From NCBI GenBank assembly GCA_016207245.1, contig JACQQA010000009.1, forward strand, positions 9,165 to 73,164: 64,000 bases of DNA, given 5' to 3'. Numbering within the stretch: position 1 is the first letter of the stretch; every line of letters starts with the position of its first letter. Source of the DNA: Candidatus Magasanikiibacteriota bacterium. GTDB lineage: Bacteria; Patescibacteriota; Patescibacteriia; Magasanikbacterales; UBA922. Made by a program: the position numbers and the translations under genes. The notes below the pieces were generated by a model. It worked only from the letters and a program-made list of their open reading frames with translations, ran no database searches and had not been told where the DNA came from. Positions 3,499 to 62,236 of the stretch are shown in pieces.

Positions 3499-3503
3499 AA
3501 GGT

Positions 3504-10080: not shown

Positions 10081-10136
10081 ATAAAATAGAGGTTATTCGT
10101 TTGTTAGTTGTTAATTGTTCATTGTTAATTTACCAA

Positions 10137-22220: not shown

Positions 22221-22302
22221 TATAAAAATACCCCGACAAACTGCCGGGGATATTTTTTTGTTGCCGCTTGCAAATCGTTGGTTGTTAGTTGCTAATTTTT
22301 AA

Positions 22303-35089: not shown

Positions 35090-35190
35090 ATAATTAACAT
35101 TACTCCATTATTATAAATAAAATCACTAATCAATGCAAGGGGAGATAGTATAAAACACAAAACTCGCGCTGTCAAGCATAACAACAAAAT

Positions 35191-35660: not shown

Positions 35661-35666
35661 ATTAAT

Positions 35667-35695
35667 AGTATAGCACATTTTTTAACTCTTGTCAA
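35667..35695 (-). promoter_or_regulatory. Promoter TTGACA-N17-TATACT driving the candidate ncRNA
   Basis: -35 at 35690-35695, -10 at 35667-35672, 17-nt spacer counted by hand. Confidence 0.65.
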
Positions 35696-35734
35696 GGGCA
35701 TTATGATGCTTTTTTAATTTTTTGCTAATTTTAG

Positions 35735-35771
35735 ATAAAAAATAATAAAACTTGTCCGCCGAAGAGGCGGA
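35735..35771 (-). terminator. Rho-independent terminator after ychF
   Basis: Minus strand TCCGCC-TCTTC-GGCGGA followed by CAAGTTTTATTATTTTTT. Confidence 0.6.
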
Positions 35772-35796
35772 ATAGTATACACTAGTGTATACTATT
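35771..35796. promoter_or_regulatory. Perfect 26-bp palindrome AATAGTATACACT|AGTGTATACTATT
   Basis: All 13 pairs checked by hand. Candidate dimeric-protein binding site. Confidence 0.5.
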
Positions 35797-35812
35797 GGGC
35801 TAAAAAATAGAA

Positions 35813-35857
35813 AGTTATCCACAATTTAGCCAAGTTTTCCCCAGAGTTATCCACAAT
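35813..35857 (+). promoter_or_regulatory. Two identical 13-mers AGTTATCCACAAT, each with a perfect DnaA box TTATCCACA, 32 bp apart
   Basis: Boxes at 35815-35823 and 35847-35855, upstream of the ncRNA promoter and next to an AT-rich tract (35712-35752). Confidence 0.55.
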
Positions 35858-35882
35858 AGTATAGAGTGTTGTATACTTTCGG

Positions 35883-38831: not shown

Positions 38832-39917
38832 ATGCAAACATTCTTAATCATTTTCCTGTCCGCCCTTTCAATCGCCCTGCTGATCGGTTTTGTTTTGCTA
38901 TACAAAAAACTCTCAACTCTGCAAAAACCAAAAGAAGGCGAGCAGAATCTGTTTGTCATGCTGCAAAACCAAATTCAAGACCTCTCGCGCGTGATGGACC
39001 AGAAAATGGCTGACACGCATCGGGTTGTCAATGACACGCAGGCAAATCTGCACAAAACCATCCAAACGCAATTCGGCCAAAGCATGAGAATCATTACTGA
39101 TGTCACGGAAAAACTTGCCAAACTGGATGAAACCAACCGGCAGGTGGTCGGGGTCGCGGAACAATTGCAGGGGTTGGAAAATGTTTTGAAAAACCCCAAA
39201 CACCGCGGGGTTTTGGGCGAGTATTATTTGGAGAACGTGCTGAAAAACGTGATGCCGCCGGGCGCGTATGAGATGCAATATAAATTCTCCGACGGTGATA
39301 TCGTTGATGCGGCGATTTTTATCAAAGACAAAATCGTCCCGATTGATTCCAAATTCAGTTTGGAAAACTACAACCGCGTTGTTGAGGAAAAGGATGAAAC
39401 CCACCGCGCCGAGTTGGAAAAATTGTTTAAACAAGATTTAAAAAATCGGATTGACGAGACAGCAAAATACATTAAGCCGAAAGAAAACACCATGGATTTC
39501 GCGTTTATGTTTATTCCGGCCGAGGGGATTTATTATGATTTATTGATTAACAAAGTCGGGGCGATTAAAATCAACACCCAGGATTTAATTGAGTACGCGT
39601 TCAAAGACAAGCATGTGATTATTGTTTCTCCCACCTCGTTTTTCGCTTACCTGCAAACCGTAATGCAGGGTTTGCGCGCCCTGCAGATTGAAGAATCAGC
39701 CAAAGAAATCCGCAAACAAGTGGAACAGCTCGGCAAACATCTGCTGTCTTACGAGGAATATATGAAAAAACTCGGTGTAAGCCTCGGCACAGTCGTAAAC
39801 CACTATAATACTTCTTACAAAGAGTTTGCTAAAATTGAAAAAGATGTGGTGAAAATCACCGAAGGCGAACGGCGAGTTGAGCCGCTGCAATTGGAGAAGC
39901 CGGCGATTGATGAGTAA
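38832..39917 (+). CDS. rmuC: DNA recombination protein RmuC
   Basis: N-terminal TM, coiled coil, C-terminal RmuC nuclease-like region (FAFMFIPAEGIYYD). Confidence 0.88.
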   Translation: MQTFLIIFLSALSIALLIGFVLLYKKLSTLQKPKEGEQNLFVMLQNQIQDLSRVMDQKMADTHRVVNDTQANLHKTIQTQFGQSMRIITDVTEKLAKLDETNRQVVGVAEQLQGLENVLKNPKHRGVLGEYYLENVLKNVMPPGAYEMQYKFSDGDIVDAAIFIKDKIVPIDSKFSLENYNRVVEEKDETHRAELEKLFKQDLKNRIDETAKYIKPKENTMDFAFMFIPAEGIYYDLLINKVGAIKINTQDLIEYAFKDKHVIIVSPTSFFAYLQTVMQGLRALQIEESAKEIRKQVEQLGKHLLSYEEYMKKLGVSLGTVVNHYNTSYKEFAKIEKDVVKITEGERRVEPLQLEKPAIDE

Positions 39918-40013
39918 CAGAACACAGAATGCAAATAACAGAATACTTTTGTGAACGATTTTTGTCACTGTCGTCAAATCGTTGTATTCTGTTATTTGTG
40001 TCCTGCATTTTGA
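39916..40013. repeat. P1 palindromic element, alpha core
   Basis: Arms cagaacacagaatgcaaataacagaatac / gtattctgttatttgtgtcctgcattttg around the core ttttgtgaacgatttttgtcactgtcgtcaaatcgtt. Confidence 0.8.
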
Positions 40014-41418: not shown

Positions 41419-42819
41419 ATGACTAATCACGAAATATGGCAAGCAGTGTTAGCAGAGTTTGAATTAAAGCTAACTAAAGCCAATTTTACCACATGGTTCC
41501 ACCACACCGGCATATCTGAATATGAAAACAATCAGGTGGTGATTTGTGTTCCCAGCGCTTTTGCCAAAAACTGGCTAGAAAAAAAACACCACTCTGAAGT
41601 GGTAAAAATACTGGAAAAAGTGACTGGGAAGCCTTTAAAAAGGGTGGAATATCGAGTGGAAAACATAAAAAACATCGCGGAGCATGAGTGTGTTGTTGCC
41701 ACAACAAAAACAACACCTGCTCCGACTAGTGCTTTGGTGGCGCCCCAAAACATTCCAACACCCAAAACAAGCGGCCAAAACGGCGTTAGGTTTGGCCTTA
41801 ACCAAAACTACCTCTTTGATACTTTTGTTGTTGGCAAAGGTAATGAGTTGGCGCACGCCGCGGCTCAAGCGGTTGTAAATAGGCCGGGAGAAGCTTACAA
41901 TCCTCTCTTTATATATGGCGGAGTGGGTTTGGGAAAAACCCATCTTTTGCAAGCGATTGGACATGGTCTTTTGGAAAAAAACCCGCAAACCAAGATTCTT
42001 TATGTGAGTTCCGAGCGTTTTACCAATGATTTTGTATCTTCGGTTAAAGAGGGCCGAGCCAAAGAGTTTAAAGATCGGTACCGCAATGTTGATTTATTAT
42101 TAATTGATGATATTCAGTTCATTGGCGGCAAAGAACAGACACAAGAAGAGTTTTTTCACACCTTTAACGAACTACACCAACAACACAAACAGGTGGTAAT
42201 GACGTCTGATCGTCCGCCAAAAGCTATTCCGTCGCTGGAAGACCGTTTGCGCAGCCGTTTTGAGTGGGGAATGATTGTTGATGTGGCGGCGCCAGATCTT
42301 GAGACTCGCGTAGCTATTTTACAAACAAAGTGCCAAGAAAAATCTTTTATTTTAGACCAAAAACTCGTTCAAATGGTCGCGGTTGCCATCCAAAGCAATA
42401 TCCGTGAACTTGAGGGGGTTCTAAATAAAATAATCGCGGTCCACCAACTAAAAAACATGTCACCAAACGAAGAGTCGGTCCGGTCAGTCTTGTCCACATT
42501 GGAAGCGCAAAACCTGAGGCGTTCGGCAACACCAAAAGATGTTGTTGGTGTTGTTTCCGAGTTTTATGGTGTCGGACTTGACGATATTGTTGGCAAAAGC
42601 AGGGAAAAACGCTTGGCCGGACCGCGGCAGGTTGTCATGTTTTTGTTGCGCAACGAGCTAAAGATGTCTTATCCCGCAATTGGCGATGAGTTGGGCGGCA
42701 GAGACCACACCACGGCCATGCACGCGCACACCAAGGTCGGCACAGAAATGGAAAACGACCTTAAACTAAAACAGGATATTGAGGCAATCAAACAAAAATT
42801 ATATATTGGCGCCAGCTAA
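41419..42819 (+). CDS. dnaA: Chromosomal replication initiator DnaA
   Basis: GGVGLGKTHLLQAIG Walker A and C-terminal DHTTAMHA DNA-binding motif. Confidence 0.98.
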   Translation: MTNHEIWQAVLAEFELKLTKANFTTWFHHTGISEYENNQVVICVPSAFAKNWLEKKHHSEVVKILEKVTGKPLKRVEYRVENIKNIAEHECVVATTKTTPAPTSALVAPQNIPTPKTSGQNGVRFGLNQNYLFDTFVVGKGNELAHAAAQAVVNRPGEAYNPLFIYGGVGLGKTHLLQAIGHGLLEKNPQTKILYVSSERFTNDFVSSVKEGRAKEFKDRYRNVDLLLIDDIQFIGGKEQTQEEFFHTFNELHQQHKQVVMTSDRPPKAIPSLEDRLRSRFEWGMIVDVAAPDLETRVAILQTKCQEKSFILDQKLVQMVAVAIQSNIRELEGVLNKIIAVHQLKNMSPNEESVRSVLSTLEAQNLRRSATPKDVVGVVSEFYGVGLDDIVGKSREKRLAGPRQVVMFLLRNELKMSYPAIGDELGGRDHTTAMHAHTKVGTEMENDLKLKQDIEAIKQKLYIGAS

Positions 42820-43067: not shown

Positions 43068-44192
43068 ATGAAGTTTATTTGCACCAAAGAAAACTTGTCT
43101 TATTCGTTGGATTTGGTTAGCGGGGTGGCGGGAAGGCATGCAAGCCTGCCCATCCTATCGAACATCCTTGTGCAGGCCGAGACGTCCGGCGTCAGGTTGG
43201 TGTCCACAAACCTTGAGATGGCCACAAAAGCGAACCTGCGCGCCAAAGTTGATGAAACAGGGTCTTTCACTGTGCCGGCAAAAACATTAACCGACTTTGT
43301 GCATCTTTTGCCGGACGAACAAGTGGAGATTTCTCTACAAGAGAACGAGCTGTCTATAAAATGCGGAAACTCTTCCACAAAAATAAAAGGCGCGCCAGCG
43401 GATGAATATCCGGTAGTGCCGGAAATTGAAGAACAACACGCGTACGCGATAAACGCGGACAAGTTTAAGGACGCGCTGTCTCGCGTGGTTTTTGCCAGCG
43501 CGAAAAACGAGATCAGGCCGGAGCTTTCCGGTGTTTATTTTGGTTTGTTTACGGAGAGACACGCAGGAATGATACTGGCGGCGACAGACTCTTTTCGTTT
43601 GGCGGAAAAGAAGCTTGAAGTTGAACAAGGAAGCGATGAGGCGCGGGCGATTGTTCCAGCCAGAACCGCTTATGAAATGTCGCGGCTGGTTTCTTTGGCA
43701 AAGAACAAACAGGGAGAAGCGCAGATTAGGTTGTGGCTGAGCGACGGGCAGATTGCCATGCGCTACGATGATTTTGAGGTTAGTTCTCGTTTGGTTGAGG
43801 GGAAGTATCCAGATTACGCGCAGATTATTCCGACAAAAACAAAAACCACCGCGAGTTTTCCTGTGGGCGTTATGGTAAACAAAATAAAAGCCGCGAGTTT
43901 GTTTACCGCCACGGGCGTAAACGCGGTTTCGTTTGATTTAAACGCGGGGCAAGGAACAATCGGACTGTCTTCCACCAGCACACAAACCGGCGAACACTCA
44001 TCGGAAATAGAATCCGAAGTGGTTGGCGAGGAAAACTCAATTTTATTAAACCACCGCTATGTTTTGGATGGCTTACAAAATCTTAACAACGAAGACGGCG
44101 AGCTTGGGGTGAACAGCAGCGACACACCCTGTGTGTTTAAAGCAAAAAGCAAAGACGATTATGTTTATGTGGTGATGCCGATTAGGCAGTAA
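43068..44192 (+). CDS. dnaN: DNA polymerase III beta sliding clamp
   Basis: Full-length DnaN-like, 374 aa, directly after dnaA. Confidence 0.96.
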   Translation: MKFICTKENLSYSLDLVSGVAGRHASLPILSNILVQAETSGVRLVSTNLEMATKANLRAKVDETGSFTVPAKTLTDFVHLLPDEQVEISLQENELSIKCGNSSTKIKGAPADEYPVVPEIEEQHAYAINADKFKDALSRVVFASAKNEIRPELSGVYFGLFTERHAGMILAATDSFRLAEKKLEVEQGSDEARAIVPARTAYEMSRLVSLAKNKQGEAQIRLWLSDGQIAMRYDDFEVSSRLVEGKYPDYAQIIPTKTKTTASFPVGVMVNKIKAASLFTATGVNAVSFDLNAGQGTIGLSSTSTQTGEHSSEIESEVVGEENSILLNHRYVLDGLQNLNNEDGELGVNSSDTPCVFKAKSKDDYVYVVMPIRQ

Positions 44193-47862: not shown

Positions 47863-48369
47863 ATGAGTTTACTTAACAAAAGTCAAAAAATTTGGGTAAA
47901 AAGAACTGTCGCCATATTGGCCATAATCAGTTTTATTGTGTCTGCCGGCAGGCCGCAGATGGCCGAAGCCGTGTCTTTGGCCGACTTGTTTAGTTTGGAT
48001 TTTGTAAACGCGGTTGAGCCATCTGAATTGCCAACCTCTTCTGACCGCGAGCCGGTAAGGATGGTTTGGGTGGTAGTAACGGCCTATTCCAGCACTTCTG
48101 ACCAAACTGACAACACACCTTGCATTGCCGCCAAAGGTTTTGATTTGTGCAAAGCGCATGCGGAATTCGGCGAGGGCAACACGATCGCCGCCAACTTTTT
48201 GCCGATAAACAAACAAATTAAACTGCCGGAACTGTTCGGCGACAAAACTTTCGTGGTTCGCGACCGCATGAACGAACGCTACGGCAACGGCCGGATTGAT
48301 GTCTGGATGCCGACGCGGGAAATGGCGAAAGAGTTTGGGGTGAAGAGGGTGAAGATGGAGATTTATTAA
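47863..48369 (+). CDS. 3D-domain (MltA/YuiC-like) cell-wall protein
   Basis: VVVTAYSSTSDQTDNTPCIAA...VVRDRMNERYGNGRIDVWM. Confidence 0.8.
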   Translation: MSLLNKSQKIWVKRTVAILAIISFIVSAGRPQMAEAVSLADLFSLDFVNAVEPSELPTSSDREPVRMVWVVVTAYSSTSDQTDNTPCIAAKGFDLCKAHAEFGEGNTIAANFLPINKQIKLPELFGDKTFVVRDRMNERYGNGRIDVWMPTREMAKEFGVKRVKMEIY

Positions 48370-48370
48370 T

Positions 48371-48400
48371 CAGAATGCAAAATTCAGATAACAGAATACA
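48371..48400. repeat. P1 element, isolated left arm
   Basis: cagaatgcaaaattcagataacagaataca. Confidence 0.65.
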
Positions 48401-48404
48401 TACG

Positions 48405-48430
48405 AAACCCGCCGATGAGGCGGGTTTTAG
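48405..48430 (+). terminator. Rho-independent terminator
   Basis: AAACCCGCC-GATGA-GGCGGGTTT followed by TAGTTT. Confidence 0.7.
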
Positions 48431-48556: not shown

Positions 48557-48660
48557 CAGAAATCAGAAGACAGATAACAGGATACATTTTTGTGAACGAT
48601 TTTTATCACTGTCGTCAATTCGCTGCATTTTGTTATCTGTATTCTGAATTCTGACATCTG
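48557..48660. repeat. P1 palindromic element, alpha core
   Basis: Arms cagaaatcagaagacagataacaggataca / tgcattttgttatctgtattctgaattctg. The core is near-identical to the copy at 39947-39983. Confidence 0.8.
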
Positions 48661-48662
48661 TC

Positions 48663-48691
48663 TTGACTTTTTTTTCGCCAACAAATATAAT
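48663..48691 (+). promoter_or_regulatory. Promoter TTGACT-N17-TATAAT for island 6
   Basis: Counted by hand. Confidence 0.6.
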
Positions 48692-48893
48692 TAACCCCAT
48701 CGTCTCGGCGAACCGAGGCAGACACAGCTCGTATGCGACGGGTTGCCGCATTTCGCGGTCTTTTCTCTACCTTGGCTGTCGTATTAAGGAGGACGGCAGA
48801 CGAATTTGGTGAATCCAAGGAATGAGACAAGAGCGTCTGGTTTGGCGAGTCGGACAGTGACAACACTGGTTCTCAACCAACAGAAAGGACAAG
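48692..48893 (+). promoter_or_regulatory. ~200-nt GC-rich structured 5' leader (candidate cis-regulatory RNA)
   Basis: Hand-paired stems GTCT-CGG-CGAA-CCG...AGAC, ATGCG...CGCAT, and CCTTGG...CCAAGG enclosing CTGTCGT-ATTAAGGAGG-ACGGCAG. Confidence 0.4.
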
Positions 48894-49325
48894 ATGAAGA
48901 AGATTCTCGGAATTGCAGCGGTTCTGCTCCTTTGTGGGGCGACCGCCTCTGCCAAGGCGACCGGTGTCGGTCCGCCTTCCAACGCGCGGGACTGTATCAG
49001 TATATGCTTCGGCGACATGGCGATCGGCGTGCAGGTCAATGGCGACCAGGCAGCCGACATCGGCGTGATCTTCAACGACACCGCGATCTTCATGGGCGCG
49101 ACTGACGGCGGCTTACAAGAGTACCTGCACGTCATACACATCGCGGCGACACAGCTCGAGGCCAACTCTGGCTCGGCAACGGGGGTGGACCTCCTGGGCG
49201 CCGGGAAGATTGACGCGGCCTTCTTCATGAGCGAGGATGAGGCGCAGCCTGTGTCCACGGCTGTCATTCACTCTCCGCCACCCGACCCCAACACCGGATT
49301 CCGTGGCATCACCAGCGTCGGCTGA
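48894..49325 (+). CDS. GC-rich island 6: secreted 143-aa hypothetical protein
   Basis: Signal peptide MKKILGIAAVLLLCGATASA. No family recognised. Followed by GGGAGGGC...GCCCTCCC and a CGCCC...GGGCG + T6 terminator. Confidence 0.55.
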   Translation: MKKILGIAAVLLLCGATASAKATGVGPPSNARDCISICFGDMAIGVQVNGDQAADIGVIFNDTAIFMGATDGGLQEYLHVIHIAATQLEANSGSATGVDLLGAGKIDAAFFMSEDEAQPVSTAVIHSPPPDPNTGFRGITSVG

Positions 49326-49580
49326 ACTGCTGCGTATCCTCGGGGGCGGTCGCCTCCGCTGTTCTTTCACACACCACGGGAGGGCTGAACAGACATGCTC
49401 TGACTTCGCCCTCCCAAACTCCCATAAAATCAAACCCGCCCCAAGCTTGCCGAAGGGCGTTTTTTATTTCGCCGACTTCCAACCATTCGTTGTTAATTGT
49501 TAGTTGCTCATTGCTAATTGTATTGTTAAGATGTAAAATTGTTTTAGTTAACAAGCAGGCTGTATGGTAATAATTCGTGT

Positions 49581-49613
49581 CCCCTCCCCTATGAGGGGAG
49601 GGTGAGGGTGGGG
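49581..49613. repeat. G/C hairpin CCCCTCCCC-TATG-AGGGGAGGG plus G4-type tract
   Basis: GGGG-A-GGG-TGA-GGG-T-GGGG on the plus strand. Left flank of the DUF559 gene. Confidence 0.6.
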
Positions 49614-49636
49614 TTTTCAAAGCACAATTTTTAATT

Positions 49637-50038
49637 ATGAAATTTGTTCCTTACTCAAACCAGAAAGAATACAAAAGTTTGCGAGTCGCTCTGAGAAAAA
49701 CACAGACGGATGCTGAAGAATTATTATGGGCATACTTGAGGAACAAGAGAGCAGGCTTTAAATTTCGCAGACAGCACGGGATTGGTAATTATATTGTTGA
49801 TTTTTATTGCCACCGCTCAAAAGTAATAATTGAGATAGACGGTTTTGTGCATGAAGATGACGGTGTGTTTGAAAAAGACAAAATTAGACAAGGTGAGCTT
49901 GAAAGATTGGGTTTTAAAGTTTTACGTTACACCAATAAGCAAGTTTATAAAAATTTAAGAGGTGTCTGGTATCACATAATTGAAGAGTGTAAACAGAGAT
50001 GTGGGCCATTAACCCCCTCCCGAACCTCCCCCTCATAG
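49637..50038 (+). CDS. DUF559 (Vsr-like endonuclease fold) protein
   Basis: TDAEELLWAYLRNKRAGFKFRRQHGIGNYIVDFYC...IEIDG...LRYTN is typical of DUF559. Confidence 0.8.
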   Translation: MKFVPYSNQKEYKSLRVALRKTQTDAEELLWAYLRNKRAGFKFRRQHGIGNYIVDFYCHRSKVIIEIDGFVHEDDGVFEKDKIRQGELERLGFKVLRYTNKQVYKNLRGVWYHIIEECKQRCGPLTPSRTSPS

Positions 50039-50046
50039 GGGGAGGG
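50025..50046. repeat. G/C hairpin CCTCCCCCT-CAT-AGGGGGAGG (right flank of the DUF559 gene)
   Basis: Paired by hand. Same type as the element at 49581-49602. Confidence 0.6.
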
Positions 50047-50061
50047 ACTGTGTCCGACCGT

Positions 50062-50748
50062 ATGAATCAAAAAAAATTTGTCATTATTGACGGCAACGCC
50101 ATCATCCATCGCGCTTACCACGCCTTGCCGCCGATGACGGTCAAGGGCACGATGGTGAACGCGGTGTATGGCTTCACATCAATGCTGTTGAAAGTGATTA
50201 AAGATTTAAAACCGGATTATTTGGCCGTTAGTTTTGATGTGGCGGGCGGAACTTTTCGCGATAAAGTTTTTGACGGTTATAAAGCCAAGCGCGTGAAAGC
50301 GGACCAAGAATTATATGATCAAATTCCGCTCGTGCATAAAGTTGTTGAGGCATTTGGTTTGCCGATTTTGAAAAAAGAAGGTTTTGAAGCTGACGACGTC
50401 ATTGCCACTGTTGTGGCTAAAATTAAAAATGAAAAAATCAAAATGAAAAATGTTGTAGTGAGTGGCGATATGGACTTACTACAACTCGTTGACGATGACA
50501 CGAGCGTTTACGCGTTAAGAAAGGGCATGAGCGATATTGTGATGTATGACGCGGAAGAAGTCCAAAAGAAATATGGTTTTGGGCCGGAGCATATTGTTGA
50601 TTACAAGTCTTTGCGCGGGGATCCGTCGGATAATATTCCGGGCGTGCCGGGGATTGGGGAGAAGACGGCGACGGAGTTGATACAGAAAGTTGGAGGGATT
50701 TATGAGATTTACAAACAAATCCGAAATCCGAAATCAAAAATCTACTGA
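50062..50748 (+). CDS. polA: DNA polymerase I, 5'-3' exonuclease (FEN) portion; the frame ends inside a heptamer repeat
   Basis: MNQKKFVIIDGNAIIHRAYHALPP...GIGEKTATELI. Stop at 50746 directly after the AAATCCG repeats. Confidence 0.9.
   Translation: MNQKKFVIIDGNAIIHRAYHALPPMTVKGTMVNAVYGFTSMLLKVIKDLKPDYLAVSFDVAGGTFRDKVFDGYKAKRVKADQELYDQIPLVHKVVEAFGLPILKKEGFEADDVIATVVAKIKNEKIKMKNVVVSGDMDLLQLVDDDTSVYALRKGMSDIVMYDAEEVQKKYGFGPEHIVDYKSLRGDPSDNIPGVPGIGEKTATELIQKVGGIYEIYKQIRNPKSKIY
50717..50744. repeat. Heptamer tandem repeat AAATCCG AAATCCG AAATCAA AAATCTA at the polA frame break
   Basis: Read directly. Removing the first two units (14 nt) fuses both polA frames. Confidence 0.85.
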
Positions 50749-50795
50749 GCGAAAATATTATAAGAAAACTTACTGACGGGGAGGAGAGCGCGAGG

Positions 50796-52745
50796 ATGAG
50801 CCAGAAGCTGGCAACGGTAGTGAACGATGTGCCGGGATTGAATTTTAAATTGGAAGACTGCGCGATGAAAGATTTTGACCGGCAGAGCGTGGTGGAGTTG
50901 TTGAGGAAGTTTGATTTTTTTTCGCTGATTAAACGCCTCCCCGGAGGCGACGATTCACTTCATCACACCACCACACCACCACACCATCACCGGAAACACG
51001 TGGATTTTGAGTTGGTTGAAACTGATGAGAATAATGTTAAAGAATTTGAAAAGGCATTATCAACAACAAACGTTTTTGCTTGTAAGGAAATTTTGAGCGG
51101 AACGGATATTTTGAACAGCGATTTGCTGGGTCTGGTTTTCGTCGTTGGAGATAAATCGTTTTACTTTAAAAATCCGCAACAATTTGTGGGGTCTGTGTTT
51201 CACCAAAAAGACAAGACATTGGTTGGTCATAATTTGAAACAATTAGTCAAGATACTTACACACTTACACACTTACACACTTACACACTTATTCGACACCA
51301 TGATCGCTTCCTATCTCCTCAACTCCAGCACTCGCGCCCATGACGCGAAAAGCGTGATTTTGCGCGAATTGGGGCAAGAGATCCATGGTAGCTCAGATCA
51401 AAGCAGCTTGTTCGGCGCTAATCCAAGACAGGTTGCCGAAGAATTAAAATTGATTTTGCAAGCGCATGAAACACAAAAGAAAAAATTGGCGGATTTGGAA
51501 GACTTCGGTTTGTTTGAAAAAGTTGAGATGAAATTGATACCGGTTTTAGCCGAGATGGAATTAAACGGTGTGGCAATTGATTCTGGTGTGCTAAAAAAAT
51601 TATCCAAAGATGTTGGCGAAGAAATAAATAAAATTGACAAACAAATTCAAAAAGAGGCGGGCGAGGAATTTAATGTCGCTTCGCCCACGCAGCTGCGCGA
51701 TATTTTATTTGATAAATTAAAATTGCCGAGCGAGGGAGTTAAAAAGGGCAAGACCGGATATTCCACGGCCGACGCGGAATTGGAAAAGTTGATTGACGCG
51801 CATCCGATTATCAGTCTGATTCGCGACTATCGCGAGCTGGCGAAGTTGCAAAACACTTATGTGGATGTTTTGCCAACGCTGGTAAATAAAAAAACCGGAC
51901 GCATCCACACAACTTTTAATCAGGCGGTAACAACAACCGGCCGGCTTTCCAGTTCGGAGCCGAATCTGCAAAATATTCCAATCAGAACAGACTTGGGCAA
52001 AGAAATTCGCAACGCGTTTATCGCCGAGGCCGGAAATAATTTAATCGCCGCGGATTATTCTCAAATTGAACTGCGCATTGTCGCTTCGCTGGCCAAAGAC
52101 CAGACAATGATTGACGTATTTAAGCGTGGTGAGGATATTCATCAAGCCACGGCCGCGGTTATAAATGATGTGCCGTTGGAAAAAGTAACGAAAGAAATGC
52201 GCTACGCGGCCAAAGCGGTAAATTTCGGCGTGCTATATGGCATGGGTTCTTATGGATTGGCGTGGCGGACAAAAATGCCGCAATGGCAGGCGAAAGATTT
52301 TATAAAAAAATATTTTGAAAAATTTTCCAGCGTGAAAAAATATATTGATCAGACTTTGGAATTCGCCAAAAAAGAGGGCTATGTGGAAACTTTGTTTGGC
52401 CGTCGGCGTTATATTCCGGAATTAAAATCCGACAATTTTCAACTGCGTTCGGCCGGCGAGCGGATGGCGATCAATATGCCGATTCAAGGCACAGCCGCGG
52501 ATTTGATGAAAATGGCGATGATTGCCGTTCATGACCAAATCCGAAATCCTAAATCCGAAATCCTAAATCACGACGATACAAAAATGATTTTGCAGGTGCA
52601 TGATGAGTTGGTATTAGAAGTTAAAAAGGGTTTGGAAAAAGAAGTGTCAAAATTAGTGAAAGACGCGATGGAGAATGTGGTGAAATTAAACGTGCCGGTG
52701 GAGGCGCATGTAAGTGTTGGGAAAAGGTGGGGAGAGTTGAAATAG
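50796..52745 (+). CDS. polA: DNA polymerase I, 3'-5' exo-like and polymerase domains (frame open from 50706, first ATG at 50796)
   Basis: TGRLSSSEPNLQNIP, DYSQIELR and QVHDELVLEV motifs. The pre-ATG in-frame codons encode LLSENIIRKLTDGEESAR, which is homologous to the Pol I linker. Confidence 0.93.
   Translation: MSQKLATVVNDVPGLNFKLEDCAMKDFDRQSVVELLRKFDFFSLIKRLPGGDDSLHHTTTPPHHHRKHVDFELVETDENNVKEFEKALSTTNVFACKEILSGTDILNSDLLGLVFVVGDKSFYFKNPQQFVGSVFHQKDKTLVGHNLKQLVKILTHLHTYTLTHLFDTMIASYLLNSSTRAHDAKSVILRELGQEIHGSSDQSSLFGANPRQVAEELKLILQAHETQKKKLADLEDFGLFEKVEMKLIPVLAEMELNGVAIDSGVLKKLSKDVGEEINKIDKQIQKEAGEEFNVASPTQLRDILFDKLKLPSEGVKKGKTGYSTADAELEKLIDAHPIISLIRDYRELAKLQNTYVDVLPTLVNKKTGRIHTTFNQAVTTTGRLSSSEPNLQNIPIRTDLGKEIRNAFIAEAGNNLIAADYSQIELRIVASLAKDQTMIDVFKRGEDIHQATAAVINDVPLEKVTKEMRYAAKAVNFGVLYGMGSYGLAWRTKMPQWQAKDFIKKYFEKFSSVKKYIDQTLEFAKKEGYVETLFGRRRYIPELKSDNFQLRSAGERMAINMPIQGTAADLMKMAMIAVHDQIRNPKSEILNHDDTKMILQVHDELVLEVKKGLEKEVSKLVKDAMENVVKLNVPVEAHVSVGKRWGELK
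51254..51290. repeat. 8-nt tandem repeat ACTTACAC x4.6 inside polA
   Basis: Encodes LTHLHTYTLTHL. Confidence 0.75.
52537..52571. repeat. Five heptamers AAATCCG/AAATCCT inside the polA polymerase domain, in frame
   Basis: Encodes QIRNPKSEILNH in the loop before QVHDELV. Confidence 0.8.
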
Positions 52746-56041: not shown

Positions 56042-56145
56042 CAGAATACAGAAGGCAGATAACAGAATGCACTTATGATTTGTGTTTGTTCTGCTCGCCA
56101 ATCATCCGCTCGTTGCATTTTGTTATCCGTATTCTGCATTCTGTG
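56042..56145. repeat. P1 palindromic element, beta core
   Basis: Arms cagaatacagaaggcagataacagaatgca / tgcattttgttatccgtattctgcattctg. The core contains ctcgccaatcat. Confidence 0.8.
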
Positions 56146-56180
56146 TCCGTTTGTGATATAATACCTCCAAACCACCGCAG

Positions 56181-57971
56181 ATGATTAGCAAAACAAAACA
56201 CAAAGGTTTCACTCTGGTCGAGATCGTCGTCGCGCTCGGCGTGTTTTTATTATTCGTGAGCGGGATTTATTCCGGCATTCAATTTGTTTTCAAATCGGTT
56301 TATTATTCTCGCCTGAAAATTTTGGAGACCGGAATTTTGAATGAACAATTGGAAATCATCCGCAATCTGCCGTTTGAAGACGTCGGCATTATCAACGGCA
56401 GTCCGTCTGGTGTTTTAGAAAGAACAGCCACAACAACCCGCAACAACATTGATTTTGAAATTACGCGCACAATCAGAAATATTGACGACCCGTTTGACGG
56501 CACTATCGGCGGCGCGCCGAACGATCTCGCGCCGGCGGACTATAAAATGGCTGAAGTGGAAATAATCTGTACAAATTGTAATCAGACAAAAAAAGTCAGC
56601 GAGGTTACTTATGTCTCGCCAAAACTTTTGGAAGGCGACCCGACTCACGGCGCGCTGTTTATTGAAGTGTTTGACGCTAACGGAGATCCGGTTTCCGGCG
56701 CCGATGTTCATGTGGTCGCGACTGAAACCGATCCGAGTATTGATTTGACCGACACCACGGACAATGACGGCATGTTAAAATTGGTTGATTTGGGCGCGGG
56801 CATCGGTGTTTATAATATTACCGTCTCTAAAGATGGATACACGACTGATCAGACAGTTATTCCAACCGAAGCAAACCCGAACCCAACAAAAGGTTCGGCA
56901 TCGGTTGAAGCGCAAAATGTTACCGAAATCAGTTTTTCCATTGATCATGTTTCACAGCTTGATTTGTCAACCATAAATAGCGCTTGCAACGCGGTCGGCA
57001 ATGTTGGTGTCCGCGTGATGGGAACAAAATTGCTTGGCACAGACCCGGATGTATTAAAAGTGGATGAGAATGTTTCTACTGACAGCGGCGGCAATTACAG
57101 TTTAGCTGATTTGGAATGGGATGCTTATGCTTTGCCGATTTTGTCCAGCTATGATTTGATTGGGTCAATTCCGATTTTGCCGATTAGTTTGCCGCCCGGA
57201 GTTACTCAGCCGGTTCAGCTTTTGGTTGGCGCCAACACCAACAATTCTTTATTAGTTAATGTTTCCGACAACATGACAAACCAGCCGATTTCCAACGCGA
57301 GCGTGCGCGTTTATGCCGGAAGCTACGACCAGACCAAGACAACCGGAATCGGTTTTACCCGGCAGACCGACTGGTCGGGAGGTTCCGGCCAGGAAAGTTT
57401 CGTCAATGAAACAAAATATTGGGATGACGACGGCAAAGTTAATGTGACCGGAAGCGCCGGCAGTATTACTTTAAAAAAAGTTGGGCAAGATTATTTATCA
57501 AGCGGAGAATTGGAATCTTCCACTTTTGATTTAGGTTCCGCGGTTAATTTTGTTAATTTAATTTGGGAACCGCTGGGTCAGCCCGCCGAGGCGGGCGCTG
57601 ATCCGGTTCGCTGGCAGATTGCTACGAGCAATCTCGCTAATCCTGCTTCTTGGGATTATCTGGGGCCGGACGGCACGACAGCGACGTATTATGACGCGGA
57701 CGATATCGCGATAAACAGCGCGCATAATGGCGATAGATATTTTCGTTATAAATTATTTTTAAGCACCGCGTCAGACGAGGTTACGCCGACAGTTTCCGAT
57801 TTGATGGTAACTTACACCAATGCCTGCACCCCGCCCGGCCAATCATATTTTGGCGGTTTATCAGAGACAGATTACACGGTTGAAATTACAAAAACCGGCT
57901 ATCAGATCAACACTCAGACTGTCAGCGTTTCCGGAGATATGGTATTTGGAGCGGAGATGGCGAGTGAATAA
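56181..57971 (+). CDS. Large pseudopilin with a prepilin-type N-terminal methylation domain
   Basis: KGFTLVEIVVALGVFLL N-terminus. CarboxypepD_reg-like repeats (GDPVSGADVHVV..TDNDGMLKL). Confidence 0.8.
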   Translation: MISKTKHKGFTLVEIVVALGVFLLFVSGIYSGIQFVFKSVYYSRLKILETGILNEQLEIIRNLPFEDVGIINGSPSGVLERTATTTRNNIDFEITRTIRNIDDPFDGTIGGAPNDLAPADYKMAEVEIICTNCNQTKKVSEVTYVSPKLLEGDPTHGALFIEVFDANGDPVSGADVHVVATETDPSIDLTDTTDNDGMLKLVDLGAGIGVYNITVSKDGYTTDQTVIPTEANPNPTKGSASVEAQNVTEISFSIDHVSQLDLSTINSACNAVGNVGVRVMGTKLLGTDPDVLKVDENVSTDSGGNYSLADLEWDAYALPILSSYDLIGSIPILPISLPPGVTQPVQLLVGANTNNSLLVNVSDNMTNQPISNASVRVYAGSYDQTKTTGIGFTRQTDWSGGSGQESFVNETKYWDDDGKVNVTGSAGSITLKKVGQDYLSSGELESSTFDLGSAVNFVNLIWEPLGQPAEAGADPVRWQIATSNLANPASWDYLGPDGTTATYYDADDIAINSAHNGDRYFRYKLFLSTASDEVTPTVSDLMVTYTNACTPPGQSYFGGLSETDYTVEITKTGYQINTQTVSVSGDMVFGAEMASE

Positions 57972-57972
57972 A

Positions 57973-58057
57973 CATGCGAAATGCGAAAGATTGCGAAAAT
58001 GCGAACAACCGCTACAATTCGCTTTTCGCAATTTCGCAATCTTTCGCATTTCGCATG
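57973..58057. repeat. P2 palindromic element built from ATGCGAA heptamers
   Basis: catgcgaaatgcgaaagattgcgaaaatgcgaa ... ttcgcttttcgcaatttcgcaatctttcgcatttcgcatg. The outer 26 nt are perfectly complementary. Confidence 0.8.
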
Positions 58058-58066
58058 TATACTATT

Positions 58067-58687
58067 ATGTTTAAATTACAACTGCCAACAAAACATTACG
58101 GCTTTACCATCGTGGAGCTCTCCGTCGCTCTCGGTATTTCCGCCATGATTGCCGTAACCGTGGTTTGGCTTATTATTGACGGCTTGCGTTACAGCAATAT
58201 TATTTTTGATCAACTGCAAACGCAAAACGACGGCCGTCGGGTTTTACAACAGGTGGTTGATGTGGTGAGAAAGACGGAAGAATCCAGCATCGGCGGCTAT
58301 CCGCTGGTTTCTGCCGGAGAATATGAGCTGATAGTTTACGCCAATGTTGACAGCGACAGTTTGCGCGAGCGGGTCAGATTTTGGCTGGATGGAACCACGC
58401 TAAAAAAAGGCGTAATAAAACCCAGCGGCAGTCCGTTGAGCTATTCCGGCGCGGAACAAACGGTTGAAATAGCCCATGATGTTGTTAATTTTTCTGAAAA
58501 CAAGCCGTTGTTTTTATATTATGATGAAAATTACACCGGCACTGAAGAGGCGCTGGTTCAGCCGGTGGAAGAAGTTGGTGTGCGAATGGTGCGCGTGCGG
58601 CTGGAGTTGGAAGAAGATCCTGACAAGAGTCCGGTGCCGCTGGAAGTGGAAAGCGCGGCGATGATACGCAACCTGAAAGCGAATTGA
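58067..58687 (+). CDS. Minor pseudopilin (PilW/GspJ-like) with a prepilin N-terminal domain
   Basis: MFKLQLPTKHYGFTIVELSVALGISAMIAV. Confidence 0.75.
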   Translation: MFKLQLPTKHYGFTIVELSVALGISAMIAVTVVWLIIDGLRYSNIIFDQLQTQNDGRRVLQQVVDVVRKTEESSIGGYPLVSAGEYELIVYANVDSDSLRERVRFWLDGTTLKKGVIKPSGSPLSYSGAEQTVEIAHDVVNFSENKPLFLYYDENYTGTEEALVQPVEEVGVRMVRVRLELEEDPDKSPVPLEVESAAMIRNLKAN

Positions 58688-58691
58688 CGAA

Positions 58692-58832
58692 CAGAATGCA
58701 GCCACCAGATAACAGAATGCAACGAACGGGTGATTGGCGAGTAGAACAGACACCAATCGTAAATGTATTCTGTTATCTGTATTCTGGTAACTGTTCGTTG
58801 TAATTGCATTCTGTTATTTGTATTCTGCATTC
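58692..58832. repeat. P1 palindromic element, beta core, with a duplicated right arm
   Basis: cagaatgcagccaccagataacagaatgca ... ggtgattggcgagtagaac ... tgtattctgttatctgtattctg ... tgcattctgttatttgtattctgcattct. Confidence 0.8.
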
Positions 58833-58840
58833 TAAAAAAT

Positions 58841-60247
58841 ATGTTATTCAAAAAAACCAAACAACTCATCGCAGATAATCATTGCAAACGAAAGGGCAGC
58901 ATCTTGATGTTTGTTTTGGTTTTCGGCGCGGTGGCGAGCATGATGATAATTTCCGGCGTGGCGAGCTACGCGATTTTTGAGAATAAAGCGTCAAACCGCA
59001 AACATAATCGCGATTTAGCGTTTCAAATCGCCGAAGCCGGAGTAAATTATTATAAGTGGCATTTGGCGCATTCGCCCACCGACTATTGGGACGGCACCGG
59101 CGGTCAACCCGGACCGTATCAGCATGATTATGAAGATAAAAATGGGACAATAATAGGATATTATTCTTTGGAAATTGACGAACCGTTAGCCGGCAGCAGC
59201 GTAGTGGTAATGCGTTCAACAGGCTGGACTGTCGCCGAGCCGGAAACCAAACGAACACTTCAAGTCAGACTGGGCTTCGCGGCTTTGACTGATTACACCT
59301 TTCTTTCCAACGCCAACATGAATTTCAGTTTTACCACGGATGTTCACGGCACGGTTCATTCCAATGGTGGAATCAGGTTTGACGGCACGACCGACTCTTG
59401 GGTTAAAAGCGCTAAGGAAACATATACCTATTTAAATCAAACCCACAAAGGCGTTTGGGGCGCCGGCGGGCCGAAATCTTTTTGGCAATATCCTGTGCCA
59501 TGGATAGATTTTTTTGCCGTAACCTCTGATTTATCGAATATCAGCGATATGGCTGATGAATCAAACACCCACTACACATCTTCCGGCAAAGAAGGGTGGC
59601 ACATTGTTTTCACCGGGACGACTTACAAACTTTACAAAGTTACCAGCCGCGAGTGCCATTATGGCGAAGGGAGTTGGAAATATAAAAAGAAAACAGGTTG
59701 GTATTGGGTTGGGAGCACCTATTGTTATGATATTGGCGCGGAACAATTAGTCGGCACATATTCAATACCAACCACGGGCGCGATTTTTGTTGAGGATGAT
59801 GTGTGGATAGAGGGCACGGTTGATGGTAGAGTGAGTGTTGGCGTCGGTAAATTTCCCGTGCAGGAGCCGTATAAAACCGCGTATATCAGCAACAACCTGC
59901 TTTATACGGAAAAATCCAGCGATGATGTTATTGGCATCTTGGCGCAAGGCAATGTTGTTGTTCCGTATGATGTGCCTGATGATATGGAAATTAACGCCGC
60001 CATGCTGTCGCAGTTTGGCCAGCTTTACCGTCCGTATTATTACGATGATTTAAAAGACGATTTGACGATATTCGGTTCGCAGATTTCTTATCAGGGCGGC
60101 GGTTGGAAGTATGTCAATGGTTGGGGCAATGTAGTTTCCGGTTTCGTGGACACTCACCATGTTTACGATGGCAACCTGAAATACTACCCGCCCCCGGGCT
60201 TTCCGGTGGGAACGGTGTACGATTTGATTAGTTGGGAAGAGTTGTAG
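58841..60247 (+). CDS. PilX-like minor pilin / pilus-associated protein
   Basis: Start MLFKKTKQL..KGSILMFVLVFGAVASMMIISGVASY (PilX_N-like hydrophobic segment). Confidence 0.65.
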   Translation: MLFKKTKQLIADNHCKRKGSILMFVLVFGAVASMMIISGVASYAIFENKASNRKHNRDLAFQIAEAGVNYYKWHLAHSPTDYWDGTGGQPGPYQHDYEDKNGTIIGYYSLEIDEPLAGSSVVVMRSTGWTVAEPETKRTLQVRLGFAALTDYTFLSNANMNFSFTTDVHGTVHSNGGIRFDGTTDSWVKSAKETYTYLNQTHKGVWGAGGPKSFWQYPVPWIDFFAVTSDLSNISDMADESNTHYTSSGKEGWHIVFTGTTYKLYKVTSRECHYGEGSWKYKKKTGWYWVGSTYCYDIGAEQLVGTYSIPTTGAIFVEDDVWIEGTVDGRVSVGVGKFPVQEPYKTAYISNNLLYTEKSSDDVIGILAQGNVVVPYDVPDDMEINAAMLSQFGQLYRPYYYDDLKDDLTIFGSQISYQGGGWKYVNGWGNVVSGFVDTHHVYDGNLKYYPPPGFPVGTVYDLISWEEL

Positions 60248-60248
60248 A

Positions 60249-60407
60249 CAGAATACAGAGTGCAGATAACAGAATGCACACGACAAAAACAGCTACCAGA
60301 TAACAGAATGCAACGAGTTGGCATTGGTGAGTAAAATCGGTCGCGGATGTATTCTGCTATCTGTATTTTGGTAATTGCTCGTTTTGTTATCTGCATTCTG
60401 CATTCTG
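60249..60407. repeat. P1 palindromic element, beta core, nested double arms
   Basis: Outer arms at 60249-60278 and 60383-60407, inner arms at 60296-60311 and 60349-60375. Core is ggcattggtgagtaaaatc. Confidence 0.8.
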
Positions 60408-60450
60408 AAAAGCTGGTCAACCCACCCAAGTTTTGTTATAATAACGGCGT

Positions 60451-61290
60451 ATGAAAAAATCTTCAATAGTGAAAAAAGGTGTCATCCTCGCCGCGGGTTT
60501 GGGAACACGTTTTTTGCCAATCACCAAGTCCGTTCCCAAGGAAATGCTGCCGGTTTTGAATAAGCCGGTTTTGCAGTATATCGTGGAAGAAATGGCGGAC
60601 AGCGGGATTAAAAATATTACCATCGTCATCAGCCGCGAGAAGCAGGCGATCAAACATTATTTCACTCGCGATTTGAGATTTGAAAAAGAATTAAAAAAAT
60701 GCGGGAAGTATGATAGAATAGAGGGGCTGGTAGATTTGTTTAAAAAAGTTAAATTCAGTTTCGTGTATCAGGAAAGACCGTTGGGAAACGGTCACGCATT
60801 GCTGATGGCGCGCGGGTTAATTGGAAAAGATCCATTTGTCTGTTCCGATGCCGACAGTATTATCAGCGGCAAGATACCGGCGGTTAAACAATTATTGGAA
60901 GTGCATAATCAAACTTCGGCATCGGTGATCGGCGTGCAAAAAATTACTGACAAAAACATGATGACAAAATATGGCAATGTGTATGGAGAGCGAACTGCGG
61001 ACAAGCGGATTTATAAAGTAAAAGAATTTGTTGAAAAGCCGACGCTGGACGCGGTAACGCCGCTGGGACTGATTGTCGGCGGAATGCGGTATGTTTTTAC
61101 CGCGGACATCTGGCCGATTTTATTAAAACAAAAAAAGGGGCGGAGCGGGGAAATCTGGCTGGCGGAAGCGGCCAACACATTGGCGCGCCAAAAAGATTTT
61201 TTTGCTTACGAGTATGAGGGAAAATATTTAGACACCGGCAATCAGGACGCTCTATTAGACGCCGCGTCGTTTTTCAAGAACAAGTTATAG
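60451..61290 (+). CDS. galU: UTP-glucose-1-phosphate uridylyltransferase
   Basis: GVILAAGLGTRFLPITKSVPKEMLPV. Confidence 0.93.
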   Translation: MKKSSIVKKGVILAAGLGTRFLPITKSVPKEMLPVLNKPVLQYIVEEMADSGIKNITIVISREKQAIKHYFTRDLRFEKELKKCGKYDRIEGLVDLFKKVKFSFVYQERPLGNGHALLMARGLIGKDPFVCSDADSIISGKIPAVKQLLEVHNQTSASVIGVQKITDKNMMTKYGNVYGERTADKRIYKVKEFVEKPTLDAVTPLGLIVGGMRYVFTADIWPILLKQKKGRSGEIWLAEAANTLARQKDFFAYEYEGKYLDTGNQDALLDAASFFKNKL

Positions 61291-61310
61291 GCGATTGTTC
61301 GAACACACCC

Positions 61311-61372
61311 CCTGCCCCTCTCCGAGAGGGGAGGTTGCGAGTTCCCTCCTCAGAGGAAGGCGAGGGAGGTGT
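61311..61372. repeat. G/C-rich hairpin element (CCCCTC-TCCGA-GAGGGG type)
   Basis: Same CCCCTC/GAGGGG style as the hairpins flanking the DUF559 gene. Confidence 0.5.
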
Positions 61373-61391
61373 TCGGGTGAACACGAGAAGT

Positions 61392-62111
61392 ATGAAACAC
61401 AAGAACATTTTACTTTCATTACCATTCATATTTTCAGCATTTGGTTTTTTGTTTTTTAAGGCGGATTTCGCGTTTGGGGCGGACGGTATGTGCACCTGCG
61501 ACATTGTCCATACGGACACCGGGGAAAAAGAAACAGACGACGTGAGCGATAAGTCGCAAGCAGTGTGCTATGCGCTGGAGGGGACAGCGCCTTTTGAGAA
61601 TCAGCTTTATAAAAACTGCCTTTGGCAGGATACCGGCGGAACCTGCCAATGCAAAGTTAAAAACACACTGAACCAAGAAATAACTTTTGAAAAGATTGAC
61701 GGTATTGGGACAGAAGAGAAATGCAAGAATTTAGTAACGGAGACATCTGGTGGAGAAACAGATGTTTTAGTAAATGAAAGCTGTGAGTGGGTGGGGGGGG
61801 CGGCGCCACAACCAATTACTACCGAAGGATCCGAATCAGCTATTGATCTGCCTTCGGTCGCGGGTTTAAACAAACTAAAAAATACCGACGTAAAAGCCGT
61901 GTTTGGCAATATTATTTCTGTCGCCATGGGATTGCTGGGAAGTATCGCTTTGGCATTGTTCGCCTACGCCGGCGTGCTCTGGATGCTGGCCGGCGGCAAC
62001 GCCGAAAGGTCAACGCAAGCAAAAAATATTGTGGTCTGGGCGACGCTGGGTCTGTTTGTTATTTTCGCGAGTTATACTATAGTGAGTTTTATATTTAGCG
62101 CGGTAGAGTGA
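61392..62111 (+). CDS. Secreted Cys-rich protein with a C-terminal two-TM T4SS-pilin-like (TrbC/VirB2-style) segment
   Basis: Signal peptide MKHKNILLSLPFIFSAFG. The C-terminus GLLGSIALALFAYAGVLWMLAGGNAERSTQAKNIVVWATLGLFVIFASY resembles the T4SS_pilin family. Confidence 0.6.
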   Translation: MKHKNILLSLPFIFSAFGFLFFKADFAFGADGMCTCDIVHTDTGEKETDDVSDKSQAVCYALEGTAPFENQLYKNCLWQDTGGTCQCKVKNTLNQEITFEKIDGIGTEEKCKNLVTETSGGETDVLVNESCEWVGGAAPQPITTEGSESAIDLPSVAGLNKLKNTDVKAVFGNIISVAMGLLGSIALALFAYAGVLWMLAGGNAERSTQAKNIVVWATLGLFVIFASYTIVSFIFSAVE

Positions 62112-62112
62112 T

Positions 62113-62236
62113 AATACAGAACACATAACACAATTAACAAAACACACACGATTCAAAACACATAACCCAATAAACATAACACAACAAACCCAATCGCCAA
62201 TCCACTGTGTTCTGTTATCTGCATTCTGTATTCTGC
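62113..62236. repeat. P1 element, degenerate left arm and intact right arm
   Basis: Right arm tgtgttctgttatctgcattctgtattctg, core caatcgccaatcc (beta type). The left side has decayed to a CA-rich tract. Confidence 0.6.

Follow-up and report, generated by a model that had tools for sequence, protein, structure and literature searches.

Intergenic palindromes with heptad-repeat arms in a Magasanikbacterial genome: probable gene-less relatives of the intervening sequences of 23S rRNA

The subject of this analysis is P1, a family of palindromic elements in a stretch of 64,000 nucleotides (nt) from a Candidatus Magasanikiibacteriota genome (assembly GCA_016207245.1, contig JACQQA010000009.1, positions 9,165 to 73,164), which is referred to here, in its entirety, as the window. 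On balance we favor the view that P1 copies are miniature members, devoid of an open reading frame (ORF), of a class of heptad-armed palindromic cassettes of the intervening sequence (IVS) type that are tolerated in the spacers between genes. In our best reading, such a cassette consists of inverted arms of tandem 7-nt units around a loop that may hold a gene for an S23p ('four helix bundle') protein or for a GxxExxY nuclease of the PD-(D/E)XK type, and the classical ORF-bearing IVS of 23S rRNA is the same kind of cassette residing in rRNA. The interesting part is the broad pattern, in which S23p and GxxExxY genes are found inside inverted arms with a 7-nt period (7-8 nt for GxxExxY) and gene-less copies are found in spacers.

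That the hairpins between genes of the window form a real, dispersed, multi-copy palindromic family is confirmed by counting. When up to three mismatches are allowed, the arm 16-mer CAGATAACAGAATGCA has 21 matches in the window as compared to 0.53 (sd 0.73) in dinucleotide-preserving shuffles, and all 21 fall inside seven places, six elements and a solo arm, which had been proposed in a sequence-only reading of this DNA and which can be read directly at the proposed positions. An eighth CAGA arm lies outside the window, about 1.1 kb from its end, where it directly follows the stop codon of the next gene in the independent assembly L189 (L numbers are our labels for comparison sequences). This brings the count to eight copies in about 65 kb, and the family is not unique to the window. 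The elements, and two palindromes of other types in the same region, are as follows:

E1, 39916-40013, unstranded: CAGA-heptad arms with the alpha core; flanked by the stop of rmuC and the start of a yggU-like gene (ATG at 40021).
Solo P1 left arm, 48371-48400, unstranded: directly after the stop of ORF 47863-48369.
E2, 48557-48660, unstranded: P1 element with the alpha core.
E3, 56042-56145, unstranded: P1 element with the beta core inverted, between the divergent promoters of tig (minus strand) and a pilin gene (plus strand).
ATGCGAA palindrome, 57969-58061, unstranded: 37-nt arms, 95% complementary, z -13.4.
E4, 58692-58833, unstranded: P1 element that contains the beta core and has an additional right arm.
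E5, 60249-60407, unstranded: P1 element with nested double arms.
GC-rich palindrome of non-P1 type, 61296-61385, unstranded: resembles the inverted flanks of the DUF559 ORF described below.
E6, 62113-62236, unstranded: composite of an ACACAA-type part, an inverted beta-like core and a CAGA right arm.

P1 units in the window are CAGAATG and CAGATAA. A repeat finder gives inverted arms of 26-35 nt with 74-88% complementarity, Tandem Repeats Finder assigns them periods of 7 and 14, and partners lie 40-110 nt apart in elements of 98-159 bp that contain no ORF. Predicted RNA folds range from -33 to -52 kcal/mol (z -4.5 to -6.0), with a weaker value for E6 (-16.8 kcal/mol, z -3.3). The two conserved cores of the original description were borne out and are 35-43 nt long: the alpha cores of E1 (at 39947) and E2 (at 48588) are 97% identical over 31 nt, and the beta core of E4 (58722-58764) is 86-87% identical to that of E3 (56072-56114), in the opposite orientation. 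The extra arm of E4 and the nested arms of E5 also matched their description. E6 did not: what had been taken for a decayed left arm is instead a second heptad type built of ACACAAN units, and this arm type, together with its GGATTGGCG core, recurs with 81-92% identity at 3905-3992 of the related locus L185, in a different spacer (435-aa gene to galU). The ends of the 57969-58061 palindrome, CATGCGAA...TTCGCATG, resemble arms that surround GxxExxY ORFs in relatives. Rfam, searched at gathering and permissive thresholds, holds no family for the P1 elements; the window yields tRNAs only, and matches of miRNA models to the palindromes were sub-threshold and attributable to chance.

The genes of the cluster encode trigger factor, three type-IV-pilin-like proteins, a GalU-like nucleotidyltransferase (100% identical to a protein of an NCBI 'Candidatus Magasanikbacteria' metagenome-assembled genome), a protein with a type IV secretion system (T4SS) pilin domain and a solute-binding protein (SBP), in agreement with the initial gene guesses for the pilin/galU/T4SS-pilin region. 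All P1 copies of the window lie between protein or tRNA genes, and the window contains no rRNA. Between 56 and 62.3 kb, six of six gaps contain a long hairpin and four of the six contain a P1 element. The suggestion that hairpins would stand between every cistron on mRNA needs correction, as not every copy is intercistronic: E3 lies between divergent promoters and is probably untranscribed. E1, E4 and E6 start 0-3 nt past a stop codon and end 7-10 nt ahead of a start codon that lacks a Shine-Dalgarno sequence. Promoter-like sites come after E2 and E5, the former being a consensus promoter, TTGACT-17-TATAAT, at about 48663-48691.

The placement between stop and start codons is the first of several observations in favor of a rival explanation that we regard as unlikely, namely that the elements are immobile, host-selected regulatory hairpins which resemble repetitive extragenic palindromes (REP) and bacterial interspersed mosaic elements (BIME), or Correia elements, in function only, and which stabilize upstream mRNA, mediate processing or translational coupling, or insulate promoters. 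The presence of a hairpin in each spacer of the pilin-galU cluster across the three related genomes, and the retention of the E3 arm at the orthologous site of L122 at 81% coding identity, would fit such a role as well. Transcription termination, however, does not. No T run follows any P1 right arm, so the elements are not intrinsic terminators, and a terminator reading of the hairpins was rejected for lack of U tracts; terminator-like sites in the region occur at shuffle level (12 versus 8.8), and a hairpin that does look like an intrinsic terminator, at 48405-48428, comes after the solo arm. Selection on the stems at the RNA level should appear as an excess of sense-strand G.U over A.C mismatches, and no asymmetry of this kind was found among the stems: G.U pairs number 22 in the sense and 26 in the antisense direction, with 45 transversions in 533 positions. 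Together with the existence of empty spacers and the probable absence of E3 from any transcript, this argues against a purely host-selected RNA function. So do the wholesale replacement of the sequence at a given site between relatives and the occurrence of the same arms around selfish-looking ORFs.

The latter two observations come from syntenic relatives, L185 and L187 (GCA_016212615.1), which were found through GalU homologs (91% and 88% identical to the window protein, respectively) and have a coding nucleotide identity to the window of 77-86%. Their spacers compare with those of the window as follows:

Pilin596 to pilin206: window, ATGCGAA palindrome; L185, single TACGAA arm; L187, ATGATAA palindrome.
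Pilin206 to the 468-aa gene: window, E4; L185, ORF-less TACGAA palindrome; L187, GTGATAA/ATGATAA arms around a 123-aa PF05635 (S23p) ORF.
468-aa gene to galU: window, E5; L185, ACACAA-type element; L187, empty (14 nt).
galU to the T4SS pilin: window, GC palindrome; L185, genes overlap by 4 nt; L187, a different GC palindrome.
T4SS pilin to the SBP gene: window, E6; L185, TACGAA arms around a 127-aa PF13366 (GxxExxY) ORF; L187, ATGATAA palindrome.

This comparison of filled and empty sites, which the sequence-only reading had called for, shows that orthologous spacers are filled, empty or furnished with a different element, and that they have been repeatedly occupied, emptied and re-occupied among relatives, each genome having its own predominant heptad. 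The upstream neighbor of galU across the empty 14-nt spacer of L187 is a 443-aa gene. At the E3 site, the sequence of a third relative, L122 (81% identity across tig), terminates in the same CAGA arm, which has five units there and four in the window. At two sites a relative carries a gene where the window has none: a PF05635/TIGR02436 ORF (S23p, also named 23S_rRNA_IVP; L187 1833-2204) at the E4 site, and a PF13366/TIGR04256 ORF (GxxExxY, also named PDDEXK_3; L185 5640-6023) at the E6 site. The L185 GxxExxY cassette has 44-nt arms with 1 mismatch, and these same arms recur in the ORF-less element at L185 2368-2512, as one would expect of an autonomous element and a miniature derived from it. 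The presence of the same kind of arms around small ORFs in relatives supports, at the level of sequence comparison, the idea that P1 behaves like a non-autonomous element.

A wider sample comprised every S23p and GxxExxY ORF in the loci examined, 17 distinct ones, from Kuenenia, Planctomycetia, Saccharibacteria, other Patescibacteria and IMG/VR contigs. Within it, the GxxExxY genes L197/198, L201 and L202 were picked by protein homology alone, and the S23p genes L206-L210 (IMG/VR) by protein motif alone, with a four-sequence profile that returned five loci. By eye, inverted arms are present on both sides of 17 of the 17 ORFs. Flanks of 160 nt on each side were compared with those of 419 control ORFs of 100-160 aa from the same loci:

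Inverted 14-mer with at least 13 of 14 positions matching between flanks: 13 of 17 S23p/GxxExxY ORFs, 9 of 419 controls.
Perfect inverted 14-mer between flanks: 9 of 17 S23p/GxxExxY ORFs, 0 of 419 controls.
Period of 7-8 in both flanks: 9 of 17 S23p/GxxExxY ORFs, 3 of 419 controls.

The arms of S23p genes have a clear heptad periodicity with variable units (CAGANNN, AGTTGGG, AGAAACC, GTAAAAA, ATGATAA, GGTAAGA, AGTGGAG), and those of GxxExxY genes consist of (T)ACGAA or TTCGAA units at a spacing of 7-8 nt and end in TTCGCACAT or something close to it. Arms of CAGA heptads are found in more than one phylum. A metagenome scan with the CAGA arm pattern returned 53 distinct matches from many samples: 14 are short palindromes whose TCTG-heptad partner lies no more than 200 nt away, two (L136 and L164) enclose an S23p ORF between the arm and a partner at about 370 nt, 22 are solitary tracts in long open frames, and 15 belong to none of these groups. 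Scans of other collections were less productive. Genome contigs probed with the arm 16-mer gave unspecific, nearly all single chance matches, the informative ones being CAYIJI01 (Saccharibacteria), L031 (Kuenenia) and L042 (Balneolales), and a scan of viral contigs for the P1 arm gave two matches only and no sign of phage carriage.

The Kuenenia locus (L031, Ca. Kuenenia hertensis) contains several such structures close to one another: an S23p cassette with TAACAGA arms at 3050-3650, immediately upstream of cas2; a palindrome of CCGTNNN heptads at 3920-4055, downstream of cas2; and a second S23p ORF, with GAGTTGG arms, at 1645-1968. In the window itself, one small gene has inverted flanks of a third type and looks like an ORF-bearing cassette analogous to those of S23p and GxxExxY:

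DUF559 (Vsr-like endonuclease) cassette, 49577-50054, plus strand: ORF 49637-50038 with GC-rich inverted repeats at 49577-49614 and 50012-50054.

Each of these flanking repeats is itself a small palindrome, and the DUF559 stop codon lies in the center of the downstream one.

The link to rRNA is provided by L164, which is a bacterial large-subunit rRNA (Rfam RF02541, 1139 bits) with an S23p ORF and CAGA arms at the classical helix-45 IVS position. Its arms read CAGAGGA CAGTTAA CAGCATA CAGAGGA / TCTGTAT TCTGTTA TCTGTCC TCTGA. In Coxiella burnetii the IVS has a terminal stem of 28 bp, an S23p ORF and a GACAGAA unit beside two or three GACAGAT heptamers in tandem, whose number varies by strain; RNase III excises it in vitro (PMC4990558). 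GACAGAT is the CAGA-type unit of the window arms in another register. P1 elements have in common with 23S rRNA IVSs that carry an S23p ORF (the Leptospira, C. burnetii, Brucella and Xanthomonas type) a long terminal inverted repeat that forms a stem of at least 20 bp, and tandem CAGA-type heptamers in the arms. They differ in lying in spacers of protein genes and not in an rRNA helix, in lacking an S23p ORF in the loop (S23p is found in the loop at the orthologous L187 spacer), in being multi-copy and in having cores of their own; excision by RNase III has been demonstrated for rRNA IVSs only. The sequence-only reading had recognized neither this link to rRNA IVSs and S23p/GxxExxY cassettes nor the occurrence of CAGA-heptad arms across phyla, and of its question whether P1 would match an already described repeat family, the answer is yes for a related class (rRNA IVSs and heptamer repeats) and no for P1 as a family.

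How might such elements be maintained and spread? By analogy with rRNA IVSs, transcribed stems of 26-37 bp would be substrates for RNase III, and the element would be cut out of the transcript or would cut it; an element between a stop codon and the next start would therefore be nearly harmless and would leave the cistrons separated. Spread and turnover would take place at the DNA level. Our guess is that a break at the center of a palindrome is repaired from another copy, with the arms serving as homology, which would explain both the nested copies and the cores in either orientation. Since recombination between inverted arms would flip the cores, their presence in both orientations requires no transposition. 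For E5, with its nested arms, and E4, with its extra arm, insertion into pre-existing palindromes or recombination between them would fit, and the number of heptads would shift by replication slippage.

Two further proposals concern the encoded proteins. Tentatively, S23p and GxxExxY proteins could be trans-acting partners of their own heptad-armed palindromes, much as RAYT proteins are of REPINs, and P1, rRNA IVSs and many bacterial heptanucleotide repeats could be products of their activity. Each protein lineage would recognize its own 7-nt unit, with the nuclease or pentameric binder helping the cassette to be copied into the tips of hairpins. The second proposal, which we hold to be rather improbable, is that the arms are arrays of sites for a DNA- or RNA-binding protein such as pentameric S23p or the GxxExxY nuclease, with each 7-nt unit representing one contact, and that they exist as protein-loaded structures and not as RNase III substrates. 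Arms of four to six units would suit an array of this kind, as would the (T)ACGAA-type arms ending in TTCGCACAT or similar at four of four distinct GxxExxY loci and the common arm types of closely related S23p pairs (L144/L173, 91% identity; L031b/L136, 79%). At about 40% identity, on the other hand, the arm types of S23p genes do not follow the protein tree, in what is a small and biased sample, and the window contains no partner gene. Binding arrays are compatible with the cassette interpretation of P1 and not exclusive of it.

Several points weigh against the interpretation of P1 as miniature cassettes. Neither an S23p nor a GxxExxY homolog is present in the 64-kb window, and the CAGA-armed master copy that would be predicted was not seen in the sequence of this genome that was examined; the source contig does code for a GxxExxY protein, P0154, outside the window. 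Outside this lineage neither the alpha nor the beta core has a match, and no relation of either to the ORFs could be detected. As the sequence-only reading had also noted, the flanks of E1-E6 contain no consistent direct repeat indicative of target-site duplication, and there is no transposase among the genes examined in the window or its relatives. Alignment of the window with the empty L187 spacer gives no clean empty/filled junction. With neither a target-site duplication nor a precise junction reconstructed, insertion is putative, and concerted evolution of ancestral spacers is a possible alternative to it. Cleavage of P1 by RNase III is extrapolated from cases in other organisms; with E. 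coli RNase III as query, the window and the comparison loci gave no rnc gene; and E3, between divergent promoters, may never be transcribed at all. Finally, the periodicity of GxxExxY arms is loose, with a spacing of 7-8 nt, and the loci of the wider sample come in part from genomes picked for carrying CAGA heptads.

Heptads are also found in the window outside P1. Tracts with a period of 7 or 14 number 19, as compared to 2.25 in shuffles; four are intragenic and some are solitary, including the following:

Solo TTGTTAA heptad tract, 49485-49522, unstranded: similar tracts at 10091-10137 and 22274-22309.
AAATCCG/AAATCCT tract in polA, 52529-52575, plus strand: in frame, encoding the loop QIRNPKSEILN between polymerase motifs B and C.

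The latter tract also closes the 5'-nuclease ORF (50711-50748), where it encodes the C-terminal KQIRNPKSKIY; polA is split in the window (49999-52745) into this ORF, ending at 50748, and a Klenow-like ORF at 50796-52745. In-frame CAGA/ACTGATA heptad tracts likewise occur within conserved genes of other Patescibacteria that are rsmI-like, cysteine-desulfurase-like and dus-like (L029 6680-6712; L063 1785-1805 and 2065-2140; L119 5073-5105). Tracts of this type invite the explanation that P1 consists of plain heptanucleotide simple sequence repeats (SSRs) of the long SSR (LSSR), short tandemly repeated repetitive (STRR) or TAACTGA type, generated by polymerase slippage under weak repair, with palindromes and cores being incidental. 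In addition to the excess of tracts, the 22 solitary in-frame tracts among the 53 metagenome matches, a 21-nt (three-unit) indel between L167 and L183 and the differing unit numbers of orthologous arms speak for it, and heptamers are, according to Mrazek 2007 in the form in which it is cited in PMC4679880, the most abundant class of long SSR in most prokaryote genomes surveyed. Slippage, however, makes no matched inverted arms 40-110 nt apart, no cores of 35-43 nt and no nested arms, nor does it give ORF-bearing and ORF-less copies the same arms. As an account of P1 it therefore seems to us a poor one; slippage likely explains variation in unit number, not the elements themselves.

Other features of the window were recorded in passing. 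The promoter after E2 precedes a leader of about 200 nt and a GC-rich ORF of 143 aa (48894-49325), which is lipoprotein-like and has no Pfam match, and the unit ends in a terminator-like hairpin near 49440-49465. The composition of 48663-49470 suggests a foreign origin. A noncoding RNA downstream of E2 (48695-49470) was considered and rejected in view of the 143-aa ORF with its long leader and a fold z of only -1.2. An origin region is marked by dnaA (41419-42819), dnaN (43068-44192) and a minimum of cumulative GC skew around 40-44 kb, with TTATCCACA-like DnaA boxes clustered both upstream of dnaA and near 35.85 kb (35830-35870). The stretch from 35090 to 35882 comprises 793 nt with no ORF and contains two copies of CACGCCGTAGTCCGCCCGAGGCGGACGAAGGC as well as a palindrome with 28-nt arms (35257-35355); Rfam gives no match to it, permissive thresholds included.

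Elements of the P1 type appear to fragment assemblies and to lengthen called N-termini. Short assemblies from Logan and other sources that represent the same or sister genomes (L001, L186, L189, L190) include short-read assemblies that break inside palindromes: L001 spans 60371-61329 of the window, and L190 starts inside E6. The supposed N-terminus MYSVICILV proved, as suspected, to be a right arm read in frame. For annotation of genomes of the Candidate Phyla Radiation, this means that arms produce false N-terminal extensions and that several independent short assemblies of the locus end there.

More broadly, the window locus and its relatives tie together rRNA IVSs, the S23p and GxxExxY families and heptamer repeats, and present the heptad-armed hairpin in three states: with an ORF inside rRNA, with one between genes, and ORF-less in many copies. 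IVSs of rRNA have been known since 1990, and to our knowledge their origin and mode of spread are unexplained; likewise, we know of no assigned function for the S23p and GxxExxY families, which have thousands of members, and heptamer repeats are a puzzling feature of many bacterial genomes. No prior description of heptad-armed cassettes outside rRNA, or of ORF-less copies of them, turned up in full-text searches, in which the Coxiella paper was the sole relevant match; as most subscription journals are missing from the collection searched, this is weak evidence. Testable predictions are that RNase III cuts the stems between cistrons, that the encoded proteins bind or cleave in an arm-specific manner, and that this genome has a master copy elsewhere.

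Among known repeat systems, miniature inverted-repeat transposable elements, or MITEs, were the first suggested parallel. Like classical MITEs, P1 elements have terminal inverted repeats, are shorter than 300 bp and are non-coding, and the part of the suggestion that concerns dispersed palindromes with non-autonomous behavior stands. Identity with a classical MITE does not, as there is no target-site duplication and, in the window and its relatives, no transposase partner: the ORFs that share this kind of arm encode S23p and GxxExxY proteins, which are not known transposases. Correia elements of Neisseria, also called NEMIS, form terminal inverted-repeat hairpins on mRNA that are cut by RNase III. 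P1 resembles them in its size of 100-160 bp, terminal inverted repeats, intergenic position, co-transcription, variable presence and likely susceptibility to RNase III, but has no TA or other duplication, no related insertion sequence that encodes a transposase, and arms that, unlike theirs, are internally periodic.

With REPINs and REP/BIME elements, the P1-type class has in common that multi-copy extragenic palindromes occur as doublets and, as in REPIN systems, that a single-gene 'master' has the same flanking repeats as gene-less copies, exemplified by the L185 GxxExxY cassette and the element at 2368-2512. The suggestion that P1 is itself REP/BIME-like is not supported in that form, the defining features being absent: arms are AT-rich heptad arrays of 26-44 nt as opposed to GC-rich REP sequences of 20-40 nt with GTAG, and in place of a Y1/RAYT partner, of which there is none among the ORFs scanned, there is a four-helix-bundle protein or a PD-(D/E)XK nuclease. 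The heptamers of the LSSR, TAACTGA and cyanobacterial STRR types, like P1, have a 7-nt unit, tracts next to start codons without a Shine-Dalgarno sequence and, now and then, in-frame tracts. TAACAGA and TAACTGA are one base apart, and TAACTGA-like units are also found in Patescibacteria (L167). These repeats, which include the TAACTGA repeats of Beggiatoaceae, Cyanobacteria and Bacteroidetes (MacGregor 2015, PMC4679880), have been described almost exclusively as direct repeats, with one inverted case among 170 sets in BOGUAY, and they lack paired arms and cores as well as any link to S23p, GxxExxY or IVSs. In P1, by contrast, tandem heptads are present as matched inverted pairs with cores.

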